Shown: positions 7,963-25,911, numbered from the stretch's first letter. The stretch is DNA of 64,000 nucleotides from an uncultured Gammaproteobacteria bacterium (GCA_965231095.1 OZ246416.1:185228-249227), one strand, 5' to 3'. The notes: a model not told the origin generated them from the sequence alone. A program made the numbers and translations.

Positions 7963-9027
7963 ATGAACGACATTACCCGAAAATTTGATCACCGCATAAA
8001 AAATCCTGATCCGCACATCGTGGCTCTTTTGGCTGAGATCGATGGGATTCGCGGCGAGTTCAAGGGGGGCTTGAGAATGACGCCTCAGGCAATTACCAAT
8101 CTCAAGCGATCAACCCTGATCACTTCTGCCGGTGCATCCACACGTATAGAGGGGGCAAAACTAACCGATGAAAAAGTCGAGGACGTTATGCGTGGCCTCG
8201 CGGTCTCAAAGTTTGCTGATCGTGATTCACAGGAAGTGCAAGGATATCTAGAGACACTTCAAAATGTTTTCGACAGCTTCCAGACCCTACCACTTCGAGA
8301 GGGTGTGATCACTTCTCTTCATAATCAGCTTCTGAAATATTCTCATAAGGATGACACGCACCGTGGCGGTTACAAAAAGACAGAGAACACAGTCGGGGTA
8401 CTTGGGCTAGATGGAAAAATTGCAAAGATTATGTTTGAAACGACACCGGCATTCCTTACTGCAAAGGAAATGCAGGAGCTTGTCGAGTGGACGGAAGATG
8501 CGATGGAAAAGAATCGTTTCCATCAGCTTTTAATCATCGCCAATTTTATTGTTGAGTTTTTGAAGATTCACCCATTTGAAGATGGTAATGGACGTCTTTC
8601 GCGCGTCCTCACAAATCTTTTACTTCTGCGCTCCGGCTACACATTTGTGCAGTATGTCTCGCATGAACAAATTGTTGAGCGTCGCAAGGATGAATATTAC
8701 ATTGCGCTCCGCAAGTCGCAGGAGACGTTTAAAACCGATCACGACACCATTTCGCCGTGGCTGAATTTCTTTTTGTCTGTTGTGCAAGAGCAAGCCAAAA
8801 AAGCACTCTCGTATTTACAGGAGGAAAAAATTGAGGACACTCTTTCTCCTAAGCAGTACGAAGTTTGGAAATATATTTCAAACGTTGGGGAGTCGGGGCC
8901 AGGCGATATCGTTAAAGCAACTGGTATAGCGCTCGGCACTGTCCGTCAAGCGCTTAGGAGTTTGGTCGATCTGGGCAAGATTAAGCGTATCGGCCGCGGC
9001 CGCGGTACGAGGTACGTAAAAATATAA
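7963..9027 (+). CDS. Fic/DOC-family protein (likely AMP-transferase) with C-terminal winged helix
   Basis: Canonical Fic motif HPFEDGNGRLSR. An N-terminal inhibitory-helix motif STRIEG matches (S/T)xxxE(G/N). A C-terminal HTH-like region reads GDIVKATGIALGTVRQALRSL. Confidence 0.8.
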   Translation: MNDITRKFDHRIKNPDPHIVALLAEIDGIRGEFKGGLRMTPQAITNLKRSTLITSAGASTRIEGAKLTDEKVEDVMRGLAVSKFADRDSQEVQGYLETLQNVFDSFQTLPLREGVITSLHNQLLKYSHKDDTHRGGYKKTENTVGVLGLDGKIAKIMFETTPAFLTAKEMQELVEWTEDAMEKNRFHQLLIIANFIVEFLKIHPFEDGNGRLSRVLTNLLLLRSGYTFVQYVSHEQIVERRKDEYYIALRKSQETFKTDHDTISPWLNFFLSVVQEQAKKALSYLQEEKIEDTLSPKQYEVWKYISNVGESGPGDIVKATGIALGTVRQALRSLVDLGKIKRIGRGRGTRYVKI

Positions 9028-9031
9028 TTTT

Positions 9032-9946
9032 ATGGCACTATTCAAAATTAACGGCACGTCCGTCAAAAAAATAACTGCAAAAGACCTCGATCTCGAGAGG
9101 AATTTGCAAGTGCTTTTCGAAGCTAATCTTGACGAATTGCTAAACATCGCTTTTCTTTCTCACGAGTTTCCGACTAGCTTTGGTGGCCGGATTGATACAC
9201 TCGGCATCGACAAAGACGGCGCCCCCTGCATTATTGAATATAAGAAAAATCAGAATGACAGCGTGATTAATCAGGGTCTATCTTATCTCTACTGGTTACT
9301 GGATCACAAGGCTGATTTTGAAAAAATTTGCCAGAATAAAAAAATCGGGATTGAAATCGATTGGGATTCTCCTCGGGTAATTTGCATTGCGGAAAGCTAT
9401 AACAAGTTTGATCTCGACACTGTAAACATTTTGCCCATCAATGTCGAACTGTGGAGGTATCGCATCTATGATGAAAACATACTCTTTTTAGAGCCGGAAA
9501 ATTTTCAAAAGGTCAGGGTATCTACAGCCAATATTGTCAGAAAAAGTAAGCACGATAAAGAAAAGCAGCAAATAATTCAGAAAAACTATTCGGTGGATGA
9601 ACACCTTGAAAAAGCAGGCGAGGATATTAAATCGTTATTTTTTAAATTGCGTGAGAAAATAATCTCTCTTGATACTGAGATTAAAGAAGAGCCACAAAAA
9701 CATTATATTGCCTATAAGCTATCCACTAATTTCGCCGATATTGAAGTCTATCGCAACCAGCTTAAGATTTTTATAAATGTGAAAAGTGGACAACTTGTCG
9801 ATCATGATTCTATTGCCCGGGACATGGAAAATCCGAAACATATCGGTCACCACGGCAACGGTGATTATGAGGTAAGGCTTGAAAGCGAAAATAATTTGGA
9901 CGCGGTATTTTCCCTCATCAAGCAGAGCTACGACGTAAACAAATAA
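9032..9946 (+). CDS. PD-(D/E)xK nuclease-fold protein (304 aa)
   Basis: GRIDTLGIDKDGAPCIIEYKK reads as D ... D ... hhhhEYK in the spacing of a restriction-endonuclease-like core. It starts 5 nt after the Fic stop and ends 10 nt before Mod. Confidence 0.4.
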   Translation: MALFKINGTSVKKITAKDLDLERNLQVLFEANLDELLNIAFLSHEFPTSFGGRIDTLGIDKDGAPCIIEYKKNQNDSVINQGLSYLYWLLDHKADFEKICQNKKIGIEIDWDSPRVICIAESYNKFDLDTVNILPINVELWRYRIYDENILFLEPENFQKVRVSTANIVRKSKHDKEKQQIIQKNYSVDEHLEKAGEDIKSLFFKLREKIISLDTEIKEEPQKHYIAYKLSTNFADIEVYRNQLKIFINVKSGQLVDHDSIARDMENPKHIGHHGNGDYEVRLESENNLDAVFSLIKQSYDVNK

Positions 9947-9956
9947 TTTAAAAATT

Positions 9957-11852
9957 ATGGCAACTAAACCTAAAAAAGTAAATCTCACATCCTCAAATCT
10001 CAGCGAAGAAAAGCTATGGGATCTTCGCCGGATATTGCCGGAAGCTTTTAGTGAAAACAAAATCGACTGGGACAGGTTAAAAACTGTCCTCGGTGATCAC
10101 ATTGATCCTCGAATCGAAAAGTTTGGGTTCTCTTGGGCTGGCAAAAATAATGCACTACAAAGTGTATTAATTCCTAGCGCCGCGACATTAAAGCCCGCAA
10201 CAAAAAAAGGTCTTAAATTTGAGAGTAGTGAGAATCTATTTATTGAAGGAGACAATCTCGAAGTTCTTAAATTGCTACAAAAATCTTATTTTGAAAAGGT
10301 AAAAGTTATTTACATCGATCCACCTTACAACACTGGATCAGACTTCATCTACAAGGATAATTTTTCAACCCCAATTAAGGGATACCTTGAGCAAACAGGT
10401 CAAGTAGACACTGAGGGTCAAAAACTGCAAACCAATCGAGAAACAAACGGACGCTATCATAGCGATTGGCTCTCAATGATGTATCCGAGATTAAAGCTCG
10501 CTTGGAATTTATTGCGCGATGATGGCGCTATGTTCGTTAGTATCGACGATAATGAAGTTCATCATTTGAGGATATTGATGGATGAGATTTTTGGCGAGGA
10601 AAACTTTATTACACAAATAATTTGGGAGAATCGTGAGGGGGGAGGAGGTTCTGATAGTAAAAATTTCAAAATCAAGCATGAATATGTTTTATGTTATGCA
10701 AAGGACGCTGGACAGCTTCAAGTCTTAGGAGAGGAAGTAGAGAATGATGATGATTACACCAATCAAGATGAATACGTAAAGGAGAGAGGAAAATTTAAAC
10801 TCATTAAACTTAACAGCTTCAGCATCCAGTATTCCGCCTCGCTAGATTACCCAATTAAATCTCCTGATGGCACTGATATACATCCAAGCGAAGACGGAAA
10901 GCGGGGATGTTGGAGATGGTCTAAGAAAAAATTTGAATGGGGTGTGCAGAGTGGGTTTATTGAATTTAAGAAAAATGGAAATGGTAAATGGATTGTATAT
11001 ACCAAACAATACTTTAAGGTTGATAATGAAAACCAGCCGATAACCAGAACACTTCCTCCATTGGCTGTGATCCAAGAATATTCGAGTACGATGGCCACAA
11101 AACAAATGGAGGCCATATTCGGAAAAAAGAAAATATTCGATTATTCAAAACCATACCCACTGATAAAAAAACTTGTCCGTTTTGTGTCTAAAAAAAGTAG
11201 TGATGATATCATTCTCGACTTTTTTGCTGGATCAGCTACTACGGGACATGCAGTACTATCGCTTAACCAAGACGACGGTGGACATCGCAAATTTGTCCTT
11301 GTTCAGCTTCCGGAATTAATTGATGTGAAATCAGAGGCATATAAATCAGGCTACCGAACAATTACTGAAATTGGTATTGATCGATTAAAAAAGGTCATAA
11401 AAGGCTATGGCGAAAATTCTCCAATTGACGATGGGTTTAAAGTATTCGAATTAGGTAACTCTAACTATCCAGAGAATAATTTTGACTTTGATCCAGATAA
11501 GAGTGAGCAAGAAAATAAAAAGGCATTTGAAGCATATCTTGCAAAAGCAAAGCAGGCTTCTTTATTCGATGCCGAGAATGGCATTGATGTTGTTTATGAA
11601 AACATCGTAAAAGAAGGCTTGTCCCTAAATGCAAAAGTGACAGAGCAGAAGCTCGGTAAAAATAAAGTGTATGTGGTCACTGATGGCGAACGGTCACTGT
11701 TGGTTTGCTTAGACAAGAAGGTCGAGTCGGAGACGATCAAAGAACTTACTAGCCACGAATACAAAGATCGGATATTTATCTGCATCGATAAAGCTCTAGA
11801 TGACACTGGCAAGGCAAATCTTGGCCTCAATCTTGAGCTAAAAACAATCTAA
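9957..11852 (+). CDS. mod: Type III restriction-modification methyltransferase (Mod), N6-adenine
   Basis: Motif IV DPPYNT. Region SIDDNEVHHLRILMDEIFGEENF is typical of Type III Mod. Motif I is FFAGSATTGHAV. A central variable TRD-like region is present. Confidence 0.75.
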   Translation: MATKPKKVNLTSSNLSEEKLWDLRRILPEAFSENKIDWDRLKTVLGDHIDPRIEKFGFSWAGKNNALQSVLIPSAATLKPATKKGLKFESSENLFIEGDNLEVLKLLQKSYFEKVKVIYIDPPYNTGSDFIYKDNFSTPIKGYLEQTGQVDTEGQKLQTNRETNGRYHSDWLSMMYPRLKLAWNLLRDDGAMFVSIDDNEVHHLRILMDEIFGEENFITQIIWENREGGGGSDSKNFKIKHEYVLCYAKDAGQLQVLGEEVENDDDYTNQDEYVKERGKFKLIKLNSFSIQYSASLDYPIKSPDGTDIHPSEDGKRGCWRWSKKKFEWGVQSGFIEFKKNGNGKWIVYTKQYFKVDNENQPITRTLPPLAVIQEYSSTMATKQMEAIFGKKKIFDYSKPYPLIKKLVRFVSKKSSDDIILDFFAGSATTGHAVLSLNQDDGGHRKFVLVQLPELIDVKSEAYKSGYRTITEIGIDRLKKVIKGYGENSPIDDGFKVFELGNSNYPENNFDFDPDKSEQENKKAFEAYLAKAKQASLFDAENGIDVVYENIVKEGLSLNAKVTEQKLGKNKVYVVTDGERSLLVCLDKKVESETIKELTSHEYKDRIFICIDKALDDTGKANLGLNLELKTI

Positions 11853-11856
11853 AGTT

Positions 11857-14466
11857 ATGAAGTTAAAATTCGACGCAAATCAAGAATACCAAATCGATGC
11901 AATCAGCGCCGCTGTTGATCTATTCGAAGGTCAGGATAAAAGCGCAAGTAAAATGTTTGCGGGCAATGGACTGCTAGGAATCTACCCAAACATTCTTTCC
12001 CTCTCTAAAGATGATATTTTGGCTAACTGCAGCAGGGTGCAAGAGCACAACAAAACCAAAAATGGAGATGGAACATCCGACTTCGACTTCTCAATCGAAA
12101 TGGAAACCGGAACCGGTAAAACCTACGTCTATCTCCGCACTGTCTTTGAGTTGAATAAAAAATACGGCTGGAAAAAATTTATTGTGTTGGTGCCGTCCGT
12201 TGCTATACGAGAAGGGGTTATTAAGACACTTAACATCACCAAAGACCATTTCGCTGATCTTTACGATAATACGCCGTACCGTTTTTATGAATATCAGTCC
12301 AAGAATATTTCCCAGGTAAAGCACTTTGCCGACAGTTCCAACATCGAGATAATGGTCATGACTATCGGCGCTTTTAATAAAGACACTAACGTACTGTATA
12401 GCGAACGTGACCAGATGCATGGTGAACAGCCGATCAGCTATATCCAAAAGACCAATCCTATTTTAATCCTGGACGAACCGCAGAACATGGAAGGCGAGGC
12501 TACAAAAAAAGCTCTCGACAATTTCAATTCACTTTTCCGCCTACGCTACTCGGCGACCCACCGGAATGTTTATAACCTCATTTACCAACTCGCACCGTAT
12601 GACGCATATCAGATGGGTTTGGTAAAGAAGATCGAGGTCTTTTCAGTAGTGGATGACGATAATGCAACATCCGCGCCATTGCTTAATCTCATCGAAGTGA
12701 AGCCAAGCAAAACCGCAATTAAGGCCCAGATCGAGGTCATCGTAAAAGACGATCAGGGTAATGGCAAAAAGAAAAAAATAAGTGTTAAGCAAGGCGATGA
12801 TCTTGCGAAGAAAACTGAGAACTCAGCCTACGATGGCTACATTGTCGACGAGCTTACTGCGGACGCTCCGGACTTCGGTTCAATCGGTTCCGTGCGCTTC
12901 CGAAACAATGTTCAGGTCAAACAAGGCGAAGGCATCGGTGGCAACAGGCAAGATGTCATGAAAGAACAGATTGCCGAGACTATTAAGCTCCATTTTGAGA
13001 AGAAAAAGAAACTGAAGGAGGTGGGCATCAAAGTTTTATCCCTGTTTTTTATCGATCGCGTAGACAACTATGTCCGGGATGACGGTTTTATACGGCAAAC
13101 ATTTATTCAGCAGTTCAATACTCTTAAAAAAGAATACGGCGAAAGCAACACTGATGTGAGCAAGGTTCACAAAGGCTACTTCGCCATGAAGAATGCCACA
13201 GAGTACATCGAACGCGAATCTGCTATTGCGGAAAACAAGGAGGCATACGAGCTGATCATGAAAGATAAAGAGCGATTGCTTTCCTTTGATGAAGCGACTG
13301 AATTTATTTTCTCGCACTCGGCCCTCAAGGAAGGCTGGGACAATCCTAATATTTTTAACATCTGCACTCTCAATCTGACTTCCTCAACTATGAAAAAGAG
13401 ACAAGAGATAGGTCGTGGTATGCGACTTTGCGTGGATCAATCAGGTGAGCGCATCTTTCTTAAAAACATAAACCTATTGTCGGTCATCGCAAACGAAAGC
13501 TATTCCAGCTATGTGGCGGGCTTACAATCAGAGTTTGTCGAGGATGGCATATACAAAGCACCTCCTGTTCCAAATAATGCCAAGAGCAAAGTTACCGTAA
13601 AGCTCAAAAAGGGATTCGATAAAGATGAAAATTTCCAGGCAATTTGGGATCGTATCTCTAAAAAAACTAAATACGTTGTTCGCGTAAACGCTGATCGCGT
13701 CATTGAAAAAACATCCAAGCGCATTGGGGAGCTTCGGGTCTCAAAGCCACAGATCAAAATTGAGCGGGCTGGCATATCCATTGCGAAGGAAGGTATCGGT
13801 GCGAGCATCATCGGTGGCCAGTCTCAGGAGATGACCCAAACTCGCCGTATGATCGACTGTGTGGAATCCATTAAAAACGAAACCAAGCTGACCCGTGAGA
13901 CTGTCGCCACGATCCTGCAAAAGTCTGATAACTTCAAGTCCCTAGCAAATAATCCTGATCGATTCACTTACGAGACAATCAAGATCATCCGCGAGGAATT
14001 GGTCCGGGATTACGTGGAGCAGATCGCTTATGAAGTGATGCCGGAAAAATACGACGTTAGCCAATTCGAGAATATCCTAAGCTATAAAGATGTGACCCAA
14101 CCGGTTAATCGTTCAATTTACGATGCGATAGTTTACGACTCTGAAGTGGAGCAAAAGTTTGCCGTTGATCTCGATCAGGACGAGCGTATCAAATTATTTA
14201 TAAAGCTTCCTGGATGGTTCAAGATTGAGACGCCGGTCGGTGGCTATAATCCCGATTGGGCAATTGTTACTGCTAAGCGGGATCTGCGCGGTAAGGAAGA
14301 TACAGAGAAGGTCTATTTCGTAATTGAGACTAAGGGCGGGACGAATCTGCGCTCATCCGAACGCGCCAAGATCGACTCGGCAAAAAAGCACTTTGAGGTG
14401 ATCTCAGTTAATTACAAAGAGATCAATAGCGGGTATGAACAGTTCAAGCAAGAATGTATGAATTAA
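11857..14466 (+). CDS. res: Type III restriction enzyme Res subunit (SF2 helicase plus C-terminal PD-(D/E)xK)
   Basis: Motif I TGTGKTY (Walker A, METGTGKTYVYL). Walker B / DEAH-like ILILDEPQNM. Motif VI QEIGRGMRL. C-terminal nuclease motifs YNPDWAIV and FVIETKG. It starts 5 nt after the Mod stop. Confidence 0.75.
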   Translation: MKLKFDANQEYQIDAISAAVDLFEGQDKSASKMFAGNGLLGIYPNILSLSKDDILANCSRVQEHNKTKNGDGTSDFDFSIEMETGTGKTYVYLRTVFELNKKYGWKKFIVLVPSVAIREGVIKTLNITKDHFADLYDNTPYRFYEYQSKNISQVKHFADSSNIEIMVMTIGAFNKDTNVLYSERDQMHGEQPISYIQKTNPILILDEPQNMEGEATKKALDNFNSLFRLRYSATHRNVYNLIYQLAPYDAYQMGLVKKIEVFSVVDDDNATSAPLLNLIEVKPSKTAIKAQIEVIVKDDQGNGKKKKISVKQGDDLAKKTENSAYDGYIVDELTADAPDFGSIGSVRFRNNVQVKQGEGIGGNRQDVMKEQIAETIKLHFEKKKKLKEVGIKVLSLFFIDRVDNYVRDDGFIRQTFIQQFNTLKKEYGESNTDVSKVHKGYFAMKNATEYIERESAIAENKEAYELIMKDKERLLSFDEATEFIFSHSALKEGWDNPNIFNICTLNLTSSTMKKRQEIGRGMRLCVDQSGERIFLKNINLLSVIANESYSSYVAGLQSEFVEDGIYKAPPVPNNAKSKVTVKLKKGFDKDENFQAIWDRISKKTKYVVRVNADRVIEKTSKRIGELRVSKPQIKIERAGISIAKEGIGASIIGGQSQEMTQTRRMIDCVESIKNETKLTRETVATILQKSDNFKSLANNPDRFTYETIKIIREELVRDYVEQIAYEVMPEKYDVSQFENILSYKDVTQPVNRSIYDAIVYDSEVEQKFAVDLDQDERIKLFIKLPGWFKIETPVGGYNPDWAIVTAKRDLRGKEDTEKVYFVIETKGGTNLRSSERAKIDSAKKHFEVISVNYKEINSGYEQFKQECMN

Positions 14467-14470
14467 AAAT

Positions 14471-15454
14471 ATGAAAAATACTTTATACAAAACTGGCTTG
14501 GGGCAATATATTCTAGGGGACTCTCAAAAACTTATTGAGAGCGGTTCTCTTGATCAGTATAAAAACAAAGTCCAACTGATCTTATTCTCTCCACCCTTCC
14601 CCTTAAACGCAAAAAAGAAATATGGCAACAAGCTCGGAAAGGAATACAAAAAATGGTTGGCCGACCTTGCGCCACTATTTACGAAGCTATTAAAAAAAGA
14701 CGGCTCGATCGTAGTAGAGCTGGGCAATGCATGGGAACCTAAGCGGCCGGTCCAAGCCTTACTTTCTCTTGAATCGCTGATCGCATTTTTGAATAACCCT
14801 AAAGCAGACTTGCGCCTGTGCCAGGAATTTATTTGCTATAACCCTTCACGACTCCCATCTCCAGCCCAATGGGTTACCATCAACCGAATCCGTACGATCG
14901 ATAGCTATACGCATGTCTGGTGGATGGCAAAATCTGATTTTCCAAAAGCAGATAACCGCAAAGTTCTTAGACCCTACAGCAAGAGCATGATCCAGCTATT
15001 AAAACGCAAGAGCTATAATTCGGGTAAACGACCATCACAACATAGTATCAGCGAAAAAGGTTTCCTTACTGACAATAAAGGTAGCATTATGCATAACGTG
15101 CTCGAGTTGGAACAGATGGATGAGCAGAGAGAGATGAGGTTGCCACAAAATATGTTTAGTTTTGCAAATACCAACTCAAACGACTTTTTCTCAATACAGT
15201 GCCGCGAAAAGAACATACCAATACATCCGGCACGAATGCCAACCTCGCTCGCAACATTTTTTATAGAATTCCTGACAGACCCAGGTGACATAGTCTTCGA
15301 TCCCTTTGCCGGGACGAACACCACTGGATACTGTGCGGAAAAATTAAAAAGAAAATGGCTCGCGGTAGAAATTGACAAGGATTACGGGAAACAGTCGATT
15401 ATCAGATTCAAAGAGCCAAAACTTACTAAAACATTAACTATTAAAAAAATATGA
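14471..15454 (+). CDS. beta-class N4/N6 DNA methyltransferase (SPPF motif; likely m4C)
   Basis: Motif IV ILFSPPFPLN precedes motif I VFDPFAGTNTTG, which is the beta-class order. The SPPF/SPPY form is commoner in N4-cytosine MTases, so the m4C call is an inference. It starts 5 nt after the Res stop. Confidence 0.7.
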   Translation: MKNTLYKTGLGQYILGDSQKLIESGSLDQYKNKVQLILFSPPFPLNAKKKYGNKLGKEYKKWLADLAPLFTKLLKKDGSIVVELGNAWEPKRPVQALLSLESLIAFLNNPKADLRLCQEFICYNPSRLPSPAQWVTINRIRTIDSYTHVWWMAKSDFPKADNRKVLRPYSKSMIQLLKRKSYNSGKRPSQHSISEKGFLTDNKGSIMHNVLELEQMDEQREMRLPQNMFSFANTNSNDFFSIQCREKNIPIHPARMPTSLATFFIEFLTDPGDIVFDPFAGTNTTGYCAEKLKRKWLAVEIDKDYGKQSIIRFKEPKLTKTLTIKKI

Positions 15455-17439
15455 GCACCAAATCAGTTATCAAAAATCTAGCTTCCGTGGATATCCTGAC
15501 TGAGGCGAAAAACGCCGATGCTCTTATTGGGCGTCCCTTTTACTTGGACTACGAAAAAGCCTGTGTTCTTGTACCAGACGCGTGGAAAATGAAAGTCGGC
15601 GGAATACCGCAGGGTACATTCCTGCTTGCTTTCTACGAGAACGATGAAGGTATCTCCGAGGCGTTGCTTTTAAGAGCGCTCGGCCCGAAGGGTCTGCCCA
15701 CCGATAATGACGTGACAAGTTCGATGATCGAGTACTACAAGGACAACCTGAAAACAGCCGATGTCAAAGGTACTCAGCTCGACGACTTCACTCGTTACCA
15801 CTTCAGTTTTTCAGGACTTGAGTGTCGTATCCTGGGGACTTTTTACAAGGATAAGTCGGGGACGGTAATTTTTGGAGCAGACCTTGAAAACTTCTACAGT
15901 GCCCACAACTATACGGTCTACAAGCCATCTGGCAAAGTCCTCGAGCAAATTGTTAACTACAAGGATTTGAATGAGGTCGCTGGTGGGGTGAGCGATGTGA
16001 AGATCGGAAATGTTCGCTACAGTTCAAGTCTGCGTTTTCAGGATGGTATCGAAAAAGTTCCCGTTTACATTAGCCCCAAGGACTTTATCGGCAAGCGGAC
16101 TGCTCTGTTCGGTATGACTCGTACCGGGAAGTCGAACACAGTAAAGAAGATCATTGAAGCAACAGTTGAGATTAGCCAGAAAGCGAAAAAGGAAAATGGC
16201 AAAGACGCGGGCACTGATCCCTTTACGAAGTCGGGTCTAACAAAAGAACCAATTGGCCAAATTATATTCGACATCAACGGAGAATACGCAAATGCGAACT
16301 TGCAGGACGACGGCACGGCGATATTTGAGATGTATAAAGACGACGTTGTTCGTTACAGCCTGCTAGAAAAGCCGGGTTTCAAGGTGATGAAGACAAACTT
16401 CTTTGACGACATCGATGCCGGTTTCGAATTGCTATGCTCGTTGCTGGCGATGGATGATGCACGCTTTGTTTCAAACTTCCGATCTATCGATCTGACTGTC
16501 CCGCAAGAACTGGAAGATGATCCGAGCTTCAAAGTAAGGCATGCACGCCGGGTGGCGGCGTATAAGTGTTGCTTGCACCAAGCTGGATTCAAGCACAAAG
16601 ACACAACTATTAAATTCTCTGGAGAAGCGACTCTCAATACTCTAGCCAGCGGAATTGATCCGTCAAAGGGCATCACATACGACCAAGCCGTGAACTGGTT
16701 TACGGCGGTATGGGAGGCTACCGGAGAAAATGCCTTTTTTGAGGACTATAAAAAGAAACACGAAGGACGCGAGTGGGCTGACGAAGACTTAAAAGCTCTT
16801 CTCGTTATGCTCACACGCAAGCGCAGTCCTGGCTCTGACAAAGGTGCAGACTGTAGTGGGTTTAGAGTATTTAAACCAGCGTTGAATTTGCACACCGAAA
16901 GTGTCGACAAACCCTACGCAATTGAAATTCTAGAAACCTTGAGAGCGGGGAAGATCGTCATTGCTGACTTGTCGCAGGGCAATCCTGAAATAATTCAGCT
17001 CTACTCGGAGAAGATTTGTCAGCGAGTATTTGCTGATGCAATGAATAACTTTATTGGTGCGAAAAGCAATAATTTTATTCAGATGTATTTCGAAGAGGCT
17101 CACAATCTATTCCCAAAACAGACAGATAAAGACCTCAGTAAAATATATAATCGCTTGGCGAAAGAGGGAGCAAAGCTCCACCTCGGCATTGTCTATGCCA
17201 CCCAAGAGGTAAGCTCCATCAGCTCCAACATCCTCAAAAATACTCAGAACTGGTTTATCGCTCACCTCAACAACGAAGACGAGCTGAAAGAACTTAAAAA
17301 GTATTATGACTTTACCGACTTCACTACCGGTCTCACTAGATTCAGCCCCAACACGGACAAGGGCTTTGTTCGAATGAAAACGTATTCCAATCCATTCGTA
17401 GTTCCGGTTCAGATAGATCGGTTTACGGCAAAAAAATAA
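15451..17439 (+). CDS. HerA/FtsK-superfamily (DUF87-like) ATPase
   Basis: N-terminal beta-rich region, then Walker A ALFGMTRTGKSNT followed by FDINGEY. Walker B is GKIVIADLSQ. A sensor-like HLGIVYATQE follows. It overlaps the MTase stop by 4 nt. Confidence 0.55.
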   Translation: MSTKSVIKNLASVDILTEAKNADALIGRPFYLDYEKACVLVPDAWKMKVGGIPQGTFLLAFYENDEGISEALLLRALGPKGLPTDNDVTSSMIEYYKDNLKTADVKGTQLDDFTRYHFSFSGLECRILGTFYKDKSGTVIFGADLENFYSAHNYTVYKPSGKVLEQIVNYKDLNEVAGGVSDVKIGNVRYSSSLRFQDGIEKVPVYISPKDFIGKRTALFGMTRTGKSNTVKKIIEATVEISQKAKKENGKDAGTDPFTKSGLTKEPIGQIIFDINGEYANANLQDDGTAIFEMYKDDVVRYSLLEKPGFKVMKTNFFDDIDAGFELLCSLLAMDDARFVSNFRSIDLTVPQELEDDPSFKVRHARRVAAYKCCLHQAGFKHKDTTIKFSGEATLNTLASGIDPSKGITYDQAVNWFTAVWEATGENAFFEDYKKKHEGREWADEDLKALLVMLTRKRSPGSDKGADCSGFRVFKPALNLHTESVDKPYAIEILETLRAGKIVIADLSQGNPEIIQLYSEKICQRVFADAMNNFIGAKSNNFIQMYFEEAHNLFPKQTDKDLSKIYNRLAKEGAKLHLGIVYATQEVSSISSNILKNTQNWFIAHLNNEDELKELKKYYDFTDFTTGLTRFSPNTDKGFVRMKTYSNPFVVPVQIDRFTAKK

Positions 17440-17442
17440 CCT

Positions 17443-18801
17443 ATGTCTTACACAAGTCGAGACGGTCGAAGACCGAATGAATACGCCAGCAAATCATCCC
17501 ACGGATATATTATCCGTGATCCGGAAGTTTCTGAATTTCTGGACAAATGCAATCTGCCAAAAGCGGCAGAGGATGTTGAGGTGCCTGCAAACCTTCAATT
17601 CGATTTGGAGCCGCCAGAAAATAATCCAATAAAGCACATCATCGCCGTTGATGGTGGTCGCTCCGAGGTATTTGTAAGAAAAGACTTCCCATCCTCCACG
17701 CTTACATTCTTTCAGTTTGGGGCATTATTTTTCAAAACTGAAGACCTTGAAGCTATATCAAAAAAGGCATTCATCGATCCGGAAGATATGGCCAAGCTCA
17801 ATACCATTGAAAGGTATAAATTGGCTTTGCCGACAAAAAATATCTTGCTAAAGGATGCCGCGTCTTTCAAAGAATCGTTTCGAAAATCATTGTTTGATTT
17901 CTTTATGAAGGGGTCAAGCGGTGAGACTTTCGCGGAGACGTTGCGCTGGCTAATTTTCCAAGAGTTTGACGCCCCACTGGATGAATATAATCTTTCTACA
18001 TGCCCCAACTGCGCTGCGGGCAATATACCTTTAGGCGTAAAAATAAAAAAGACCGAGTTTTCTTATCAATGCCCTCACTGCAAAAAGGAAATATACATCA
18101 CGGACATTTTTCGCTTACACGAAGCTATCGATGACGAACTTGGCGCCGGTGGGGTTTTAGGGTATGTGAATGTGCTGATCGAGCAGATCATCATCGTTTA
18201 TTTAATCAAGGCAATTTTAGAAACAAAGCCAGCGATTCTAAGCGAAACACTTTTTATAAAAGACGGTCCACTTGCGTTCTTTGGCCAGACAGCCAACATG
18301 CAAAAACCATTGAGACATTTGACCACTTTCCTTTCGGAAAAACACAATCTGTTCTTGGCTGGTTTAGAAAAAAGCGGGCCTTTCGTTGAGCATGCGGACG
18401 AGATCGGAAAAAAATTGAAGCCTGGAACTATCCTGCTTCTGGACAACACCTATATTTACAAATATATCTTGCCTGGCAAGGTCGACAACACTGCGCCGTA
18501 CGCTCGGAGCTCTTATTATAGCGGTAAGATGATCTTCAAGTCGGCGGATGGAAAAATTTATGTTGTAACTATCCCTACCAAGAATGCCGACGTAGTCTTG
18601 GCTCCCAAGAAAAGTGATTTCCATAATTTAGACGCGATCCTGACTAATATCCAGAAATTGCGTTGTGATATGTACGATAATTCACTTTTCCCAGTTGCGC
18701 TCGCTAATAAACTTGTTTCCCTTGCTAACCACCCCAGCTCGGCAATCCTCGAAAAGTTTGCAAAAAAGACTATTGGCAAAACAGTCACGCCTCGCATATA
18801 A
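17443..18801 (+). CDS. NurA-like nuclease (RNase H-like fold) with inserted zinc ribbon
   Basis: IIAVDGGRSEV matches NurA motif I (hhAhDGS). FIKDGPLAF matches the NurA hhDGsL motif. Acidic FVEHADE follows. Zinc ribbon CPNC...(22 aa)...CPHC. It starts 4 nt after the HerA-like stop. Confidence 0.45.
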   Translation: MSYTSRDGRRPNEYASKSSHGYIIRDPEVSEFLDKCNLPKAAEDVEVPANLQFDLEPPENNPIKHIIAVDGGRSEVFVRKDFPSSTLTFFQFGALFFKTEDLEAISKKAFIDPEDMAKLNTIERYKLALPTKNILLKDAASFKESFRKSLFDFFMKGSSGETFAETLRWLIFQEFDAPLDEYNLSTCPNCAAGNIPLGVKIKKTEFSYQCPHCKKEIYITDIFRLHEAIDDELGAGGVLGYVNVLIEQIIIVYLIKAILETKPAILSETLFIKDGPLAFFGQTANMQKPLRHLTTFLSEKHNLFLAGLEKSGPFVEHADEIGKKLKPGTILLLDNTYIYKYILPGKVDNTAPYARSSYYSGKMIFKSADGKIYVVTIPTKNADVVLAPKKSDFHNLDAILTNIQKLRCDMYDNSLFPVALANKLVSLANHPSSAILEKFAKKTIGKTVTPRI

Positions 18802-18805
18802 ACCT

Positions 18806-19558
18806 ATGTCGGAATACTACACATCACAACGAGTTAAAGGTTTATACGATCCGGCATCGTCAGAGCCTTTTAAACTGTCACGATCAAAGATTGACCTCTC
18901 TTTGGATTGCCCCCGTTGTTTTTACTACGATCGCAAACTTGGAGTCGGCCGACCCCCTGGCTTTCCGTTCGCTTTAAACTCTGCCGTCGATCATCTCTTA
19001 AAAGCTGAATTCGATATCCATCGTGCCAATGGTACGAAGCACCCTCTTATTGAGAAGTACGGAGTTGATGCACGTCCGATCCCTCATGAGCAATTGGAAA
19101 AATGGCGGCATAATTTTACCGGTATCCAGTATCTGCATCCGGAGACAAACTTTTTGGTATTCGGTGCGATTGATGATCTTTGGCAAAGTCCGCAGGGTGA
19201 ATATATCGTCGTCGATTATAAGGCGACTTCCAAAGCCGAGGACATCACAGAACTAAATAAAGAATGGCAGAACGGATATAAACGTCAGATGGAGGTGTAC
19301 CAGTGGTTGCTCCGCAAAAACGGATTGAAGGTTTCCAGTACTGGCTACTTTGTCTACTGCAACGGCAAGTCAGATCGAACGGCGTTCGATGCAAAGCTCG
19401 ACTTCGACATCACGCTAATTCCTTACATCGGAGATGATTCGTGGGTAGAAAAAGCCCTCATAGATGCTCACAAGTGTCTCAATGGCGATACAATCCCGAC
19501 AGGTAAACCAGGCTGTGATTATTGTGAGTATGTCGAGGCGATATGCAAATATAAGTAG
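18806..19558 (+). CDS. Cas4/RecB-family (DUF83-like) PD-(D/E)xK nuclease with Cys cluster
   Basis: N-terminal CPRC. Motif II FGAIDDLW. Motif III YIVVDYKA. A QxxxY-like MEVYQWLL. C-terminal C-x2-C-x6-C (CDYCEYVEAIC). The ATG at 18806 is 5 nt after the NurA-like stop. The ORF from 18665 lies inside the upstream gene and was rejected. Confidence 0.5.
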   Translation: MSEYYTSQRVKGLYDPASSEPFKLSRSKIDLSLDCPRCFYYDRKLGVGRPPGFPFALNSAVDHLLKAEFDIHRANGTKHPLIEKYGVDARPIPHEQLEKWRHNFTGIQYLHPETNFLVFGAIDDLWQSPQGEYIVVDYKATSKAEDITELNKEWQNGYKRQMEVYQWLLRKNGLKVSSTGYFVYCNGKSDRTAFDAKLDFDITLIPYIGDDSWVEKALIDAHKCLNGDTIPTGKPGCDYCEYVEAICKYK

Positions 19559-19663
19559 TTATCAACCCCGCTTTAGATATGTTCAAAACCATGATTAATT
19601 GATAAAATACAGTTACAATTGAATGTGCCTAAACCCGTCAGCCTGCTGATTGGCATGGCATTT

Positions 19664-19710
19664 AATCCATCCAAGGTATAGAACCCGTCGTCAGGGTTCC
19701 TTGGATGGTT
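19664..19710 (+). other. 48-nt nested stem-loop in a non-coding leader
   Basis: AATCCATCCAAGG pairs with CCTTGGATGGTT (outer, ~12 bp). AACCC pairs with GGGTT (inner, 5 bp) around loop gtcgtca. Confidence 0.5.
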
Positions 19711-19806
19711 GCATAGGGAAACTTATGCATTCGGGCCGAAAGGTTCGAGCTCCTGGCGGCGGGCTTTATGCGAGCCGGTCCGAAATTATACACAGCGCCC
19801 CTTCTT

Positions 19807-19840
19807 GTGCTGATTTTTCAAACTGTGCTATAATTAATTC
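19807..19840 (+). promoter_or_regulatory. sigma70-like promoter with extended -10 (TTGTGC-N18-TGcTATAAT)
   Basis: A perfect TATAAT is preceded by TGc (extended -10). A 4/6 -35 TTGTGC lies 18 nt upstream. It points rightwards toward the portal gene. Confidence 0.3.
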
Positions 19841-20028
19841 AACAGAAAGCGATTGCCTGACGGCGTCCGGGTTTACCGGGCTAAACGAGACGGGGCTACG
19901 ACTTCTGTCATCAACAGCTATTTTATTATGGCTGGTGTGATGACGAGAAGTGGTAGTCCCGCTTTTTGTTTATCCTCTTGAGGCTTCGGCCTCGCATTGA
20001 ACCGACAGGAACCAGATTGGAAATAATT

Positions 20029-20063
20029 GAGCCGAGCCTTAACAGGGTCTCGGCTTATTTTAT
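20029..20063 (+). terminator. intrinsic terminator-like hairpin immediately upstream of the portal start
   Basis: agccgag(cc) ... (gg)gtctcggct gives 7+2 bp, followed by TTATTTTATTT. It lies between the promoter above and the ATG at 20069. Confidence 0.35.
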
Positions 20064-20068
20064 TTCCT

Positions 20069-21952
20069 ATGGCGGAAGCAACATCAACCCAAAAAATCAA
20101 AGAGGAAGAAACTTCTAAAAAAGAAGTGTATTCGCCATCGGCCGACGAGCAGGCGCTCATTGAAAAATGGAAAAAGCGATTTACGCGTTCCGAAGAATAT
20201 CTTCGTCCTTATCGGGCAAAGTGGCTTCGCATGTATAAGCACTACCGGGCCTATCAGGAAAAAACAAATTATGCGTACCAGACCCGGCTCATGCCTCCGA
20301 TTGCATTTCAGATCGTGGAAACAGTGGCCTCGCGTCTTGCAACTGCTAAACGAAAGACGCGCATTCTTCCGCGAGACAAAAAAGATACTGAATCAAAATC
20401 TATTGGTGCTTGGAATGATCTTGTTGGCTATGACTTTGACGTTATTAAACTGTCGAAAAAACTTCCCAAGTGGGTAAAGGCCGCTTCTACATATGGGAAT
20501 GGAATCGGCATGCTGACCTGGCTTACCGACGAAAGCATTGATCACGATGACCCATTCCTAACCATCTGCGACCTGTGGGACATTTTGCCTGCTCCTGAAA
20601 CTGAAGACCTAGAAGATGATTGTCCTTGGCTTATCCGCCGTATTTTGAAATCAAAAGACAAAATTGAGCGCGAAGAAAAAGCCCGCGGCGAAAACGTACT
20701 TTATAAAAATGTGAATTTCCTCGAAGCAAAACAAGTCGAGGATTGGAAGAAGGAGCGATACGAAGTGAACACCAAAAAGATGGGCCAGATTCAAAGTTCA
20801 GAATCGGTGGAAACTTCCAGCTCAGTAATTAAAGTCACTGGAGAAAAATATGAACCGGAAAAACAGATCGAATTGTGGGAGTGTTACGACTTTGAAGAAG
20901 GAAAATTGATCACTCTCGGCAACCGCGAAGTGCTGATGCGCGACGACGAGAATCCATACAAGAAAGTAAACCACGGCCGCATCTTCCTGAACTTGGCGGA
21001 TCACGAAGTCAACTGGGAACTTTGGGGTATTGGCCACATCGAGCCAGTTGAAACGACCATTGTTGAAATTGCAGATCTCCGCAATCAGCGCATGGACGAC
21101 GTCATTCTAATGCTTGATCCGGTAATTAAGATTCGCAAAGACTCCGGCATTTCAAAAAACGACATCATTTTTGCACCCGGTGCAAAGTGGGAGCTTCGCA
21201 AGATGGATGATGTAGTCGTCGAACGATTGCCGGACATCAGCCTCATGGGAGTGAACGAAGAAAGAGCCTTGCGTGATGAGATCGAGCGGACGCTTGCTAT
21301 CTCTGAATATGCCCAAGGCATGCCAAAGTCTTCCGATGAACCGCTCGGCAAAGTAGCCATGCTTATCGGCCAGAGCAACCTGCGTTTAAGTTCTTTTTCC
21401 CAAAATTTAGCCGAGACGCTCAGCAGCCTCGCTAACATGCTGATAGAGATGAACCAGGAATTTATCGAGGAAGACAAATTGTATCGCGTAATCGGCGACG
21501 AGGTGAGCTTTAAGGAATTCACAATGGCAGACAAAGAAGTAAAGGTCGATGCCGTGGTGACGGTTGATCCGGTCGTGCCTCCCGATCAGCAGGCCCGGCT
21601 CAATCAGTCTTTGCTCCTGTACGACAAGTTTGTGGCACAGGACAAACCTGATCCGAACAGTCCCGATGAAATCAAACAGTGGAAAAAACGAAAGCGTGCG
21701 ATTCAGGAAATGATCCTCGAAGAAATGGGCAAAGAGGCGTATCGAGTCGTAATTCTCGGCGAAGAAAAAAACGAAACCACTCAAGGTAAAGAGCCGGTGA
21801 TTCAGCCGGGAGAACCTCCGCCCATATCGGAAGCAGGTGCTCCACCGGACGCATTACCACCGCCAACTCCGCAAGCGCGTCCTGGCTTCTTGAGAAGCGT
21901 GCTGTCGAGAATTCCTTTTATCGGTCGAGGTCAAAAAACAATTAATCAATAA
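20069..21952 (+). CDS. phage portal (head-to-tail connector) protein, candidate
   Basis: About 630 aa, acidic, with no Walker A. It is the first gene of a module followed by a scaffold-like protein and a capsid. The start is set at the second ATG because the first ATG (20027) sits inside the terminator hairpin. Confidence 0.45.
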   Translation: MAEATSTQKIKEEETSKKEVYSPSADEQALIEKWKKRFTRSEEYLRPYRAKWLRMYKHYRAYQEKTNYAYQTRLMPPIAFQIVETVASRLATAKRKTRILPRDKKDTESKSIGAWNDLVGYDFDVIKLSKKLPKWVKAASTYGNGIGMLTWLTDESIDHDDPFLTICDLWDILPAPETEDLEDDCPWLIRRILKSKDKIEREEKARGENVLYKNVNFLEAKQVEDWKKERYEVNTKKMGQIQSSESVETSSSVIKVTGEKYEPEKQIELWECYDFEEGKLITLGNREVLMRDDENPYKKVNHGRIFLNLADHEVNWELWGIGHIEPVETTIVEIADLRNQRMDDVILMLDPVIKIRKDSGISKNDIIFAPGAKWELRKMDDVVVERLPDISLMGVNEERALRDEIERTLAISEYAQGMPKSSDEPLGKVAMLIGQSNLRLSSFSQNLAETLSSLANMLIEMNQEFIEEDKLYRVIGDEVSFKEFTMADKEVKVDAVVTVDPVVPPDQQARLNQSLLLYDKFVAQDKPDPNSPDEIKQWKKRKRAIQEMILEEMGKEAYRVVILGEEKNETTQGKEPVIQPGEPPPISEAGAPPDALPPPTPQARPGFLRSVLSRIPFIGRGQKTINQ

Positions 21953-21956
21953 CGCT

Positions 21957-22151
21957 ATGGCAAAAAATAACCAGACAACAAAAGTCATCACCGCAATTGT
22001 ACTGAGTAAGACATTGAGTGGCGGCGATTGCATCGTGTCCTTGCAGGAAGACCAAGGCCGAGTGCATACGATTTACCTCTCCAAAGAGGAGTCTTCCAAA
22101 ATCGACTTGGGTCACAAGCTCAAGTTAACCATTGAAAAGGTCGAAAATTAA
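21957..22151 (+). CDS. small phage protein (64 aa)
   Basis: Compact ORF 5 nt after the portal stop, with Lys/Glu-rich composition. Confidence 0.3.
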   Translation: MAKNNQTTKVITAIVLSKTLSGGDCIVSLQEDQGRVHTIYLSKEESSKIDLGHKLKLTIEKVEN

Positions 22152-22170
22152 TCAATTTAATCACACACAT

Positions 22171-22503
22171 ATGCCAGACAAAAAAATGAAAAAGAAGAAC
22201 GATCTCGCCGACGAAAGGTTTCCAGAGGGCGACAAGATCGAGTTCAAAAATCAAAAGCCTGTTCGGGAAGAAAGTGGGCAAATGGAAGCTCGCTGGAAAA
22301 AGGTCGAAAGCGTTATAGGCGCGGCAAAGGAAGCCTATCAATCAGGCAAATCAAATTTCAGCGAAGTATTGGAAAGCCTGATTGCCACCCTTCAAGACAT
22401 GCTGGACACCGATGTAGGGGGTAAAGATCTCGGCGGGCTCATGACGAATGGGCCGGAGATGGATCTTCCGCCGGAGCCTGCGCCGGAGGAAGAACAACAA
22501 TAA
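22171..22503 (+). CDS. small charged phage protein (~110 aa)
   Basis: An ORF in the structural module. The ATG at 22171 avoids overlap with the upstream gene. The C-terminus is Pro/Glu-rich. Confidence 0.3.
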   Translation: MPDKKMKKKNDLADERFPEGDKIEFKNQKPVREESGQMEARWKKVESVIGAAKEAYQSGKSNFSEVLESLIATLQDMLDTDVGGKDLGGLMTNGPEMDLPPEPAPEEEQQ

Positions 22504-22507
22504 ATAT

Positions 22508-22786
22508 ATGCAGACCAACGAGGAAAAATTTGAAACAGGGTTGGCGGTGCTGGGGATGGTCAGAACGGCTGGCTGGAAATGGCTCGAAGCAAAAATTCGC
22601 GCAGATCTCGCAATTGAATATGCGGAGCTCCGAGATTTTGACATTTCGGGAAAGACAGCCGAGCAAATTGCTTCCGACTATCTTCAGCGCCGAGCCAATG
22701 CTAACGCTTACGAGAAAATTCTCGCGTTGGTCGACGATGCCATTCGTGACAAGGACGAAGCGGCAGGCGCAATGAGCCAGGAGTAA
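22508..22786 (+). CDS. small phage protein (92 aa)
   Basis: The ATG at 22508 is 5 nt after the upstream stop. The protein is predicted helical. Confidence 0.3.
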   Translation: MQTNEEKFETGLAVLGMVRTAGWKWLEAKIRADLAIEYAELRDFDISGKTAEQIASDYLQRRANANAYEKILALVDDAIRDKDEAAGAMSQE

Positions 22787-22877
22787 CACGATGCCTATGG
22801 AGTACGCGGCAAAAAACATTGGGGGCAAGGTCGAACCCCAACCTAGTAAATAAAAATTCAATTTAACAAGCGCTTTT

Positions 22878-23747
22878 ATGAATCAAGATCGTAAAAAGGA
22901 GCTCGACGCTCTCCTCAACGCAAACTCGGAAGATGAGGAAACGGATACCGAAGAAGAAGACACCCAGGAAGACAAGGGTGAGGAAGAAGACGAGGAAACC
23001 GACACCGAAGATTCTGAAGAAGAAACCGACGAAGACGAAGAAACTGACGAGGAAGAATCGGATGACGGCGAATCGGAAAATTCCGATGACGAGGAAGAAA
23101 CCGAGGAAGATGCAGGGGGCGAGGCATCCAAGCAGAAAAACAAGTGGCACGGTAAAAGCCGTGAGGAAGTGATCCGAATGTATGAGGATCTCGAAACAAA
23201 AAACCAACCGCCAAAGCGAACAAAAGCCAAGCCTGATGCCAAGAAGGAAAACGATGAGGCCAAGGGCGAGGGAGTAGACGTCCCTAATGACGAAGAACTG
23301 GCCAAGATGACCCCCAAGCAGTTCGCAGAATGGATGGTTACGACAGTTCAAAGCATCGTCGGCAAAACCTACGATGCGCGAAGCCGGATGCGAGATTCCG
23401 CCGCGCAAGAAATTCGAGAGGCTCAGAAAGATCACCCTCTTCTGAAGACCAGTCCAGAGTACCGCGAACTCGTGCTGTCTTTGATCGACGCCGCTTCCCA
23501 AAAAGGAACGGTTATGCCGCTCAAAGAAGCGTGCATGAAGGTCGATGGATTCGCTGGAAAGGTAAAAGGAGACACAAAAGTTTCTGACACTGAGAAGATT
23601 CGCCTCAAGAAAGCCAAAGCGCAAGTCGAGAGAGGAGCGGGCGCTCCGACCTCGCCGGGCGAAGAAAAGGGTGCGGAAGAACGCCGCCTCGAAAACATCT
23701 TCGGAACAAGCGGGTCAAATGGCCCCTTAGGAGGCCTTGGGGTTTAA
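22878..23747 (+). CDS. hyper-acidic scaffolding-like protein (289 aa)
   Basis: About 90 residues of D/E/T/S-rich repeats (EEDEETDTEDSEEETDEDEETDEEESDDGE) precede a helical charged C-terminal half. It lies between portal and capsid, the usual scaffold position. Confidence 0.4.
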   Translation: MNQDRKKELDALLNANSEDEETDTEEEDTQEDKGEEEDEETDTEDSEEETDEDEETDEEESDDGESENSDDEEETEEDAGGEASKQKNKWHGKSREEVIRMYEDLETKNQPPKRTKAKPDAKKENDEAKGEGVDVPNDEELAKMTPKQFAEWMVTTVQSIVGKTYDARSRMRDSAAQEIREAQKDHPLLKTSPEYRELVLSLIDAASQKGTVMPLKEACMKVDGFAGKVKGDTKVSDTEKIRLKKAKAQVERGAGAPTSPGEEKGAEERRLENIFGTSGSNGPLGGLGV

Positions 23748-23805
23748 AACCTCATATAGCAAGGTCGAACCTCCTATCAGTTAATTAATCAACCAACAAC
23801 AAGAT

Positions 23806-24984
23806 ATGTCATCAGCAAATGGAATCAGAGGAACCGCGAACTTGGGCGTTACGCGCAAGTACGACGTAGCGGATGTAATCTCGCTTCTTGACGTAGCGCG
23901 TTATCCGCTGCTTGGCATTCTCACGAACGCCGGGAAAGACCCCGCAACCAAGCAGGGCAAGGCACTCAAGAAAAAAGAAACGAGCGATCCGGACTTCAAG
24001 TGGTTTGAGGATAAATTCGGTGCGCGCGAAGACATCGTTGCGGCCAACCAAGGAGCGGCAGTCACACTGGTTGTGACCAACGGTGCGTACTTTAGCATCG
24101 GTGACGTCCTGCTCGTAGTGAAATCGGCCCAGGGCACGAACAACCCGACCGGCGAAGTCATGCTCGTAACGGACGTGGCAACCAACACGCTCACCCTTGT
24201 GCGCCAGATCGGTGACGGCGGTTCAGGCGGAGGTCTGCTTCAGCAGAACGACATCGTCTGGATCATTGGTAATGCCAACGAAGAAGGTGCGGACCTCCGC
24301 ACAATGAAAGGAACGACGATCGCTGAAGTGCTCAACTACTGCCAGATTTTCCGAACTACGATTGGAGTCACTGAAACTTCACGCAACACCAAGGGCCTGA
24401 CAAAGGAGAACGACTTTGACTATCAGATTCGCAAGAAAGGTATCGAGCACTTGGTAGACATCGAGCGAGCTTTCCTATTCGGGAAAAAGGAGATCATCAC
24501 TTCCGGTACACATCCGAAACGATTTACCGGCGGAGTTCTACCTCGCATCAGCCAGGTCACCAGCAACGTAGCAACCCGCGACGACTTCAACAGCTACCTG
24601 AGAATCTTGTTCGCTCACGGCAACACCGAGAAATACTTGCTTGCTTCCGGTTACGTGATCGACAAGATCAACGGATTCGCTCACGACAAGTTGCAGGTAC
24701 TGCAAGGAGAAAAAACTTTTGGATTAACCATCCTTAAGTATCTTTCTCCGCACGGTACGCTAAACATCATCAAGCACGATCTGCTTGCGGGGGATCTGTA
24801 CGGCAAGAGCGGTGTCGGTGTAGACATGGAAGCTTTGACCTACCGATATCTCGCCAACCGTGACAGCAAGCTTCTCACGAATCGACAAGCACCTGGCGAA
24901 GATTCACGAGTAGACGAGTACCTGACCGAATGTGGCCTCCAGATGGAACAGCCTGAACGTCACGCAATCGTTAAGTTCGCTTAA
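23806..24984 (+). CDS. major capsid protein, candidate (392 aa)
   Basis: Position after the scaffold-like gene, size, and a terminator-like hairpin directly downstream. No sequence signature was verified. Confidence 0.4.
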   Translation: MSSANGIRGTANLGVTRKYDVADVISLLDVARYPLLGILTNAGKDPATKQGKALKKKETSDPDFKWFEDKFGAREDIVAANQGAAVTLVVTNGAYFSIGDVLLVVKSAQGTNNPTGEVMLVTDVATNTLTLVRQIGDGGSGGGLLQQNDIVWIIGNANEEGADLRTMKGTTIAEVLNYCQIFRTTIGVTETSRNTKGLTKENDFDYQIRKKGIEHLVDIERAFLFGKKEIITSGTHPKRFTGGVLPRISQVTSNVATRDDFNSYLRILFAHGNTEKYLLASGYVIDKINGFAHDKLQVLQGEKTFGLTILKYLSPHGTLNIIKHDLLAGDLYGKSGVGVDMEALTYRYLANRDSKLLTNRQAPGEDSRVDEYLTECGLQMEQPERHAIVKFA

Positions 24985-25027
24985 GCAGTCCTTCAAGTCT
25001 CGGTCGGACGGGCATGCTTTCCGAACC

Positions 25028-25065
25028 CGCCTGACCGAGTGGAAAGCCCTTGAGGGGTTTTCCGC
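25028..25065 (+). terminator. hairpin plus T-tract downstream of the putative capsid gene
   Basis: ctcggtcggacggg ... cccgcctgaccgag forms an imperfect inverted repeat. cccttgagggg is followed by tttt. Confidence 0.25.
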
Positions 25066-25905: not shown

Positions 25906-25911
25906 GCTCCT

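Follow-up and report, generated by a model that had tools for sequence, protein, structure and literature searches.

A methyltransferase-HerA-NurA cassette as a candidate methylation-based restriction system

Do four tightly packed genes, which code for a DNA methyltransferase, a HerA-like ATPase, a NurA-like nuclease, and a Cas4-like nuclease, form one defense system, or do only some of them belong together? This question is raised by a 64,000-nucleotide stretch of DNA from an uncultured Gammaproteobacteria bacterium (GCA_965231095.1 OZ246416.1:185228-249227; hereafter the window), for which an earlier note, made from the sequence, had proposed a methylation-linked module of all four genes. 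The methyltransferase, HerA, and NurA genes (14471-18801) are inherited as one unit across many phyla and are horizontally mobile. The Cas4-like gene behaves as a conserved chromosomal neighbor beside which islands and integrated elements gather. With regard to function, we lean, if only slightly, towards a horizontally mobile, ATP-dependent defense cassette of the restriction-modification (R-M) type, which would be a methylation-based counterpart of the TdpABC system.

Three genes inherited as one unit

All four open reading frames were found exactly where the earlier note had placed them, and the motifs that it had quoted, including the CxxC ribbon and the cysteine clusters, are all present in the translations (Table 1). 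The methyltransferase carries SPPF and DPFAGTNTTG, matches PF01555 (Pfam, E 7.8e-28) and the PADLOC MTase_II model PDLC03323 (E 8e-76), and aligns over its full length (residues 3-319) with the N4-cytosine methyltransferase M.PvuII (PDB 1boo, E 1e-59). The ATPase contains GMTRTGKS (Walker A) and FDINGEY. It matches PF01935 (DUF87/HerA, E 2.4e-11) and, with partial coverage, the HerA models of PADLOC (best E 1e-20, at most 72 bits). Among solved structures it comes closest to TdpA (8wet_A, E 2.9e-18), and the alignment brings both Walker motifs and the sensor TQ into register; other HerA-family ATPases, both defense-associated and archaeal, match at 1e-8 or weaker. The segment IVIADLSQ, previously taken for Walker B, is the preceding strand; Walker B is YFEEAH (residues 546-551), which aligns with LEEAH of TdpA and does not vary in any of 50 homologues. 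A predicted structure of the HerA monomer was poor, with a predicted local distance difference test score of 57.9 that dropped under 50 in the N-terminal region and in the C-terminal ATPase core, and was kept out of the fold search. HerA also has extra regions at about residues 1-180 and 290-500, to which no domain is assigned.

The nuclease is less easily placed. It contains IIAVDGG, FIKDGPLAF, and the cysteine pairs CPNC and CPHC, but has no Pfam match at E<=0.01, PF09376 included, and its alignment profile retrieved nothing from the PDB sequences at E<=1. Several homologues at 58-63% identity carry PF09376, and several are named 'DNA double-strand break repair nuclease NurA' at NCBI. The protein was assigned to the RNase H-like NurA fold, and its link to NurA and TdpB is made through fold comparison only; the best PDB fold match is TdpB, at 13-14% identity. 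Of the profile matches that had been foreseen, those to PF01555, PF01935, and PDDEXK_1 were thus obtained, and the place of PF09376 is taken by the fold and by the homologues that carry this domain. D70, D274 (in KDGPL), E309 (EKSG), and E316/H317 (VEH) are kept in 46-50 of 50 loci and, as read from the fold, are predicted active-site residues.

To collect relatives, the nuclease was searched in 185,579 genomes, each representing one GTDB species. Locus counts refer to 80 fetched loci at the species level. Close relatives of the nuclease (50-92% identity) occur in 169 species, which belong to at least nine phyla and include bacteria as well as archaea. These taxa include Patescibacteria, Chloroflexota, Bacteroidota, Bacillota, Planctomycetota, Cyanobacteria, and Deinococcota, and among the archaea Methanosarcinales and Methanotrichaceae. 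Where there is room for it, HerA lies directly upstream of the nuclease in 67 of 70 loci. The gene directly before HerA is in turn a PvuII-like methyltransferase in 55 of 66 loci, with truncated copies in three more; the genetic coupling of the methyltransferase to HerA-NurA, as formerly proposed, is thus borne out. Across 50 complete, non-redundant cassettes, none of the three proteins varies in its catalytic motifs, and SPPF and DPFxG (methyltransferase) and GMTRTGKS, YFEEAHN, and YATQE (HerA) are found in every one. Over these 50 loci the three proteins also diverge in step, as judged from correlated pairwise distances (Mantel r 0.75-0.86, p 0.001), and this includes the methyltransferase with HerA and NurA (r 0.75-0.83). 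DNA homology with locus L010, from a metagenome-assembled genome labelled Gammaproteobacteria (82% identity), covers only 14471-18774 of the window and ends 27 nucleotides (nt) before the NurA stop codon. The adjacency of methyltransferase and HerA, the correlated distances, and the confined homology to L010 together delimit a unit of three genes; HerA and NurA are the only genes co-inherited with the methyltransferase. The expected recurrence of the module in public genomes holds for these three, which recur outside phages, but rarely for the Cas4-like gene.

Gene spacing, which had been read as a sign of a four-gene module, is of no help here. The methyltransferase stop and the HerA start overlap by 4 nt, and gaps of 3 and 4 nt follow between HerA and NurA and between NurA and the Cas4-like gene. 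However, only 3-10 nt lie between one gene and the next throughout the eight genes of 7963-19558, so that tight packing does not single out four of them. In compact candidate-phyla-radiation genomes, such spacing is no guide to operon membership.

Beyond the close relatives, an exhaustive search yielded 754 nuclease-related clusters at 50% identity, 165 of them with E<=1e-30. Many of the best 150 matches listed are full-length (about 430-480 aa) and 25-50% identical to the nuclease. Relatives at 25-33% identity retain HerA and NurA, whereas the methylase belongs to other families. Two loci, in an IMG/VR contig and a metagenome contig (L086, L094), have the order D12 (Dam-type) methylase-HerA-NurA. 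A Vibrio prophage encodes integrase-HerA-NurA, followed by a convergent Type II methylase and an excisionase; in the deposited record a 'Type II MTase' note is attached to the methylase only. The Deferribacter plasmid pDF308 carries a methyltransferase, a DUF87 gene disrupted by an insertion sequence, and NurA. In this locus (L096 2126-5924), the HerA gene is split by tnpA-tnpB of an IS200/IS605 element.

Genomic setting and defense context

The three genes stand in a defense island between host genes and a prophage-like block (Table 1). SoFic, PDC-S18, Mod, and Res are separated by 4-10 nt, and the Type III R-M system that ends immediately upstream of the cassette is complete according to Pfam and PADLOC. 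Downstream, a LOOT RNA (Rfam RF03000) lies between the Cas4-like gene and the portal gene. The prophage-like block, in which no terminase was recognised, has a GC content of about 0.50, compared with about 0.42 in its flanks, and also encodes a 1266-aa phrog_9854 protein; host SecDF and other genes lie beyond it. No convincing attachment-site repeats were found around the island and the prophage, and the window contains no CRISPR-like array.

Neighbors were surveyed with up to two open reading frames on each side of the cassette, which gave 120 proteins from the fetched loci. By Pfam, the commonest neighbors are PF01555 methylases, Type III restriction subunits, serine recombinases, ABC-type ATPases, PD-(D/E)xK nucleases, AbiEii, and GmrSD. 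PADLOC assigned eight of the 120 proteins to Septu PtuA and another eight to PtuB. Several Bacteroidota loci have an HNH and an ABC-ATPase gene directly downstream of NurA; in L036, L039, L049, L062, L063, L066, L070, and L071 (about 9335-12470), Septu PtuA-PtuB follow within a few nt after the cassette. Replication or virion families are absent from the 25 most frequent neighbor Pfam families. Megablast of the locus found no match in E. coli genomes or in phage records, relatives occur in only 2 of 50,697 phage records, both in the accessory slot between integrase and excisionase, and IMG/VR held one distant match. The cassette also lies outside the block at 20027-39265. A phage replication or recombination module was rejected on these grounds, and the placement in a defense island, as suggested at the outset, stands.

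Table 1. Features of the window, with positions counted from its first nucleotide
Feature	Coordinates	Strand	Remarks
Host genes YceG, response regulator, histidine kinase	1-7768		
SoFic	7963-9027		
PDC-S18/DUF5655 protein	9032-9946		
Type III R-M Mod	9957-11852		
Type III R-M Res	11857-14466		
Beta-class N4-cytosine-type DNA methyltransferase, M.PvuII-like	14471-15454	+	327 aa; predicted modification subunit
HerA/FtsK-family ATPase	15451-17439	+	662 aa; predicted hexameric dsDNA translocase
NurA-fold (RNase H-like) nuclease with inserted CxxC...CxxC zinc ribbon	17443-18801	+	452 aa; predicted HerA partner
Cas4-like PD-(D/E)xK gene	18806-19558	+	250 aa; PDDEXK_1
LOOT RNA	19626-19747	+	full length; 75.9 bits vs gathering score 46.4
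Prophage-like block	20027-39265		portal, major head protein (23806), amidases (26457, 36889), tail fiber protein (30253)
Tyrosine integrase	38117-39265		end of prophage-like block
DUF6602 protein	39723-40538		directly after integrase, before host secDF

A possible restriction mechanism and its rivals

If the cassette is a defense system of the R-M type, the methyltransferase would mark host DNA, probably with N4-methylcytosine (m4C) at a fixed short site, and HerA would assemble as a hexameric ring and NurA as a dimer, following the architecture of the known HerA-NurA and TdpAB structures. HerA-NurA would load on DNA, most easily at the free ends of entering phage or plasmid DNA, and ATP hydrolysis would thread the duplex through NurA for processive degradation, unless host methylation prevents loading or stalls the complex. 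Methylation might be sensed if the methyltransferase serves as the subunit that recognises the site, in the manner of Type I and III enzymes, or if unwound strands are read within NurA. The 4-nt overlap of the methylase and HerA genes, together with the swapped methylase families around similar HerA-NurA pairs, suggests that HerA-NurA may rely on the methylase itself for recognition. A broader proposal, which we regard as possible but hold with less than even confidence, is that methylase-HerA-NurA loci constitute a distinct and widespread class of R-M systems. Unmethylated DNA would then be destroyed processively by a ring translocase together with an RNase H-fold nuclease, and the methylases (PvuII-like for m4C, Dam-like for N6-methyladenine) would be exchangeable. 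For such a class to exist, a HerA-type motor-nuclease would need a means of sensing base methylation that has not been described before, which raises the question of how a ring motor that tracks the backbone tells methylated from unmethylated bases.

Several points weigh against a methylation-based function. The literature yielded no experiment on any member of this family. No methylated-base-reading or sequence-specific domain was identified in HerA or NurA, and a ring motor that grips the phosphate backbone, as TdpA reportedly does, has no obvious way to sense a methyl group in the major groove. The methyltransferase shows no hypervariable target-recognition region over the 50 loci, which is unusual for a diversifying R-M system. 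CAGCTG, the PvuII site, occurs three times in the window with 7.6 occurrences expected (rank 9 of 64 palindromes) and at a ratio of 0.69 over the pooled loci; this depletion is mild and non-specific, and was set aside as evidence of specificity. Moreover, the methylase is not always present. In seven of 66 close loci (five Nostocales, L044, and L050), HerA-NurA have no PvuII-like methylase directly upstream; in L050, a D12-class methylase lies convergent just downstream of the pair. The distant relatives L090 and L093 have no methylase in the operon. The nuclease pair is thus not strictly dependent on a linked methylase.

The Nostocales variant is represented by L005, L018, L024, L027, L028, and L031. 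In L005, an Xre-type helix-turn-helix gene precedes HerA-NurA, and no methylase was found upstream of HerA. The upstream open reading frames checked in the other five are not methylases, and tblastn detected no PvuII-like methylase in them. DDE transposases occur near L005 and L031 and a CD-NTase near L028, and related copies are found on cyanobacterial plasmids. Among the distant relatives, L090 has an Mrr-like neighbor, and L093 (1583-7154, 35% identity) encodes a superfamily 2 helicase (ResIII/DEAD) between HerA and the NurA-like gene.

The loci that have HerA-NurA and no adjacent methylase (Nostocales, L044, L090, and L093) are what one would expect if HerA-NurA were a methylation-independent defense nuclease, either a RecBCD-like destroyer of DNA ends or an infection-triggered effector, with a methyltransferase that is hitch-hiking, orphan, or regulatory. 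This alternative, the strongest of those considered, could also account for close HerA-NurA pairs beside different methylase families, as in L050, and for the missing methyl-reading domain, and Sir2-HerA and DUF4297-HerA provide examples of defense independent of methylation. We nevertheless consider it unlikely, because the methylase in most loci directly precedes HerA, with a translationally coupled overlap, and co-diverges with HerA and NurA while its catalytic motifs remain invariant. In addition, the methylase-HerA-NurA arrangement recurs with unrelated methylase families, which would be hard to explain without a functional link.

More doubtful still is a role in processing the DNA of mobile elements for transfer. 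In Thermus thermophilus, an operon of ICEth1 encodes Tth111II, the NurA-like TTC1878, the HerA-like TdtA, and the PF01555 methylase TTC1880. It is needed for DNA donation ('transjugation'), which mutants of the NurA-like gene and of TdtA lose (PMC5365140). That the same three gene types are reported to serve donation and not defense in this organism also counts against restriction as the function of the window cassette. Compared by description, the two operons have the same contents, with a nuclease of NurA type, a hexameric ATPase of HerA type, and a PF01555 methylase, and both belong to a mobile element. However, the ICEth1 order is nuclease-ATPase-methylase, and the Type IIG enzyme that stands before these genes has no equivalent in the window cassette. 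Serine recombinases and integrases often flank the cassette, but the only transfer-related gene among the inspected neighbors is a weak TraG-like match that adjoins the distant locus L093, whereas defense genes are the most frequent neighbors. Furthermore, the closest solved relatives of the two proteins are TdpA and TdpB and not a secretion ATPase. The donation phenotype could be a by-product of DNA fragmentation, and the 'transjugation' genes of ICEth1 may in turn be a defense module.

The original proposal, that the Cas4-like Fe-S nuclease works as a subunit of a four-gene system, now appears quite improbable. The protein matches PDDEXK_1 (E 1.5e-14), homologues of 249-252 aa support the ATG at 18806, and both a four-cysteine signature (CPRC and C-x2-C-x6-C) and, by eye, candidate RecB-type motifs (DYK, QMEVY) are intact. 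With the Cas4 model TIGR00372 it scores 32.9 bits, below the curated cut-off of 65. Only 4 nt separate its start from the NurA stop, an arrangement shared with the closest relatives of the locus (L001, L006, and L011). It follows NurA, however, in only three of 74 loci, and L009 and L010 lack it, with nucleases that share 83% and 92% identity with that of the window. The homology to L010, moreover, stops at 18774, upstream of the Cas4-like gene. At least 8000 homologues exist at 75-91% identity, and all source-named ones are from Patescibacteria. In five other contexts that were inspected, no HerA or NurA and no cas genes were found near the gene. It follows an MmeI-like R-M system with DUF4268, a Type III R-M system with a reverse transcriptase, or an EcoRI-type methylase with GmrSD, and in two housekeeping contexts it lies with an ABC transporter and TspO or with lactate permease, MurB, and SecA. 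The Cas4-like gene was accordingly rejected as a subunit, and it looks like the anchor of a defense-island and integration hotspot.

Some further observations concern this gene. Defense genes are located immediately upstream of it in three of the five contexts, and in two of these three there are serine recombinases close by. It is highly conserved across deeply divergent lineages. In a contig of Candidatus Doudnabacteria (MFEY01000005.1; L011 1-8959), the synteny with 17780-26695 of the window, at 91-98% identity, runs from NurA through the Cas4-like gene to the phage head genes, and the prophage is common to both. On this evidence, the source of the window is probably a candidate-phyla-radiation bacterium closely related to this one.

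A housekeeping machine for double-strand-break resection, of the type found in archaea and Deinococcus and placed beside a methylase by chance, would agree with the NurA names at NCBI and with the NurA/HerA fold and motifs, but is very improbable, since the presence of close relatives in so few of the species genomes scanned and the 50-60% identity between archaeal and bacterial ones indicate recent horizontal spread, neither mre11 nor rad50 appeared in the annotated neighborhoods or among the 25 most frequent neighbor families, and the cassette is co-inherited with a methylase and occurs in defense islands, plasmids, and prophage accessory slots.

Comparison with known systems

The cassette shares both folds and their motifs with the HerA-NurA complexes of archaea and Deinococcus (PDB 4d2i, 2ygk, 7f6d, 9x1l). 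Archaeal HerA-NurA digests both strands of linear dsDNA. By analogy, a hexamer-plus-dimer architecture with ATP-driven degradation of linear dsDNA is likely for the cassette as well. Its methyltransferase is a full-length homologue of M.PvuII, but in contrast to the Type II R-M system PvuII, no R.PvuII-like endonuclease is encoded, and the ATPase-nuclease pair occupies its genomic place. The logic of a methylase combined with an ATP-driven motor-nuclease resembles Type I and III R-M systems. However, these use superfamily 2 helicases and PD-(D/E)xK nucleases, whereas the motor of the cassette is a ring-forming HerA/FtsK ATPase and its nuclease is RNase H-like.

As a scaffold or motor of a defense complex, a HerA-family ATPase is also found in Sir2-HerA and DUF4297-HerA. 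Both lack a modification gene, whereas the cassette lacks a Sir2 or DUF4297 effector; its HerA is flanked by the methyltransferase and the NurA-fold protein, and it was therefore not assigned to Sir2-HerA. Menshen (NsnABC), which the earlier note had named as a system to be checked, was likewise dismissed, because no NsnA, NsnB, or NsnC model of PADLOC matched any of the four proteins at E<=0.01. MADS was rejected too, being represented by a weak partial match of mad8 to HerA (E 8e-10) and by no other mad model. Overall, the PADLOC 2.0 models did not recognise the nuclease, matched the ATPase weakly, and yielded no named multi-gene system. The impression that the combination is not a named system thus agrees with PADLOC, but it has precedents in TdpABC and in ICEth1. 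Literature searches turned up no account of a methylase-HerA-NurA system; a mention in the Tdp study (An et al. 2025, Nat Chem Biol 21:1160), in Makarova et al. 2011, or in Iyer et al. 2004 is possible.

The closest, though distant, parallel is TdpABC (PDB 8wet, 8wfd, 8y1k), whose HerA-like TdpA and NurA-fold TdpB are the best PDB matches of the window ATPase and nuclease. In a paper that cites the Tdp study, the system is presented as the third phosphorothioate R-M system, with tdpC as its single modification gene. The modification gene of the window, by contrast, codes for an S-adenosylmethionine-dependent base methyltransferase (PF01555) and not for a phosphorothioate-synthesising TdpC; neither a TdpC-type gene nor any other modification gene is present in the cassette. 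TdpA aligns mainly over the C-terminal core of the window ATPase and over a marginal stretch around Walker A, and the similarity of the nuclease to TdpB is undetectable by sequence profile. The window proteins are also larger (662 and 452 aa, compared with 586 and 358 aa for TdpA and TdpB), and the zinc ribbon is an insertion in the window nuclease. Reportedly, a TdpA hexamer and a TdpB dimer translocate on and degrade DNA free of phosphorothioate, and the phosphorothioate sulfur disrupts contacts with the backbone. A block of this kind would not simply be transferable to a methyl group on a base. If the cassette does restrict phages, it would add a methylation-based branch to the Tdp-type HerA-NurA restriction machines and fill a gap in the present catalogues of defense systems.

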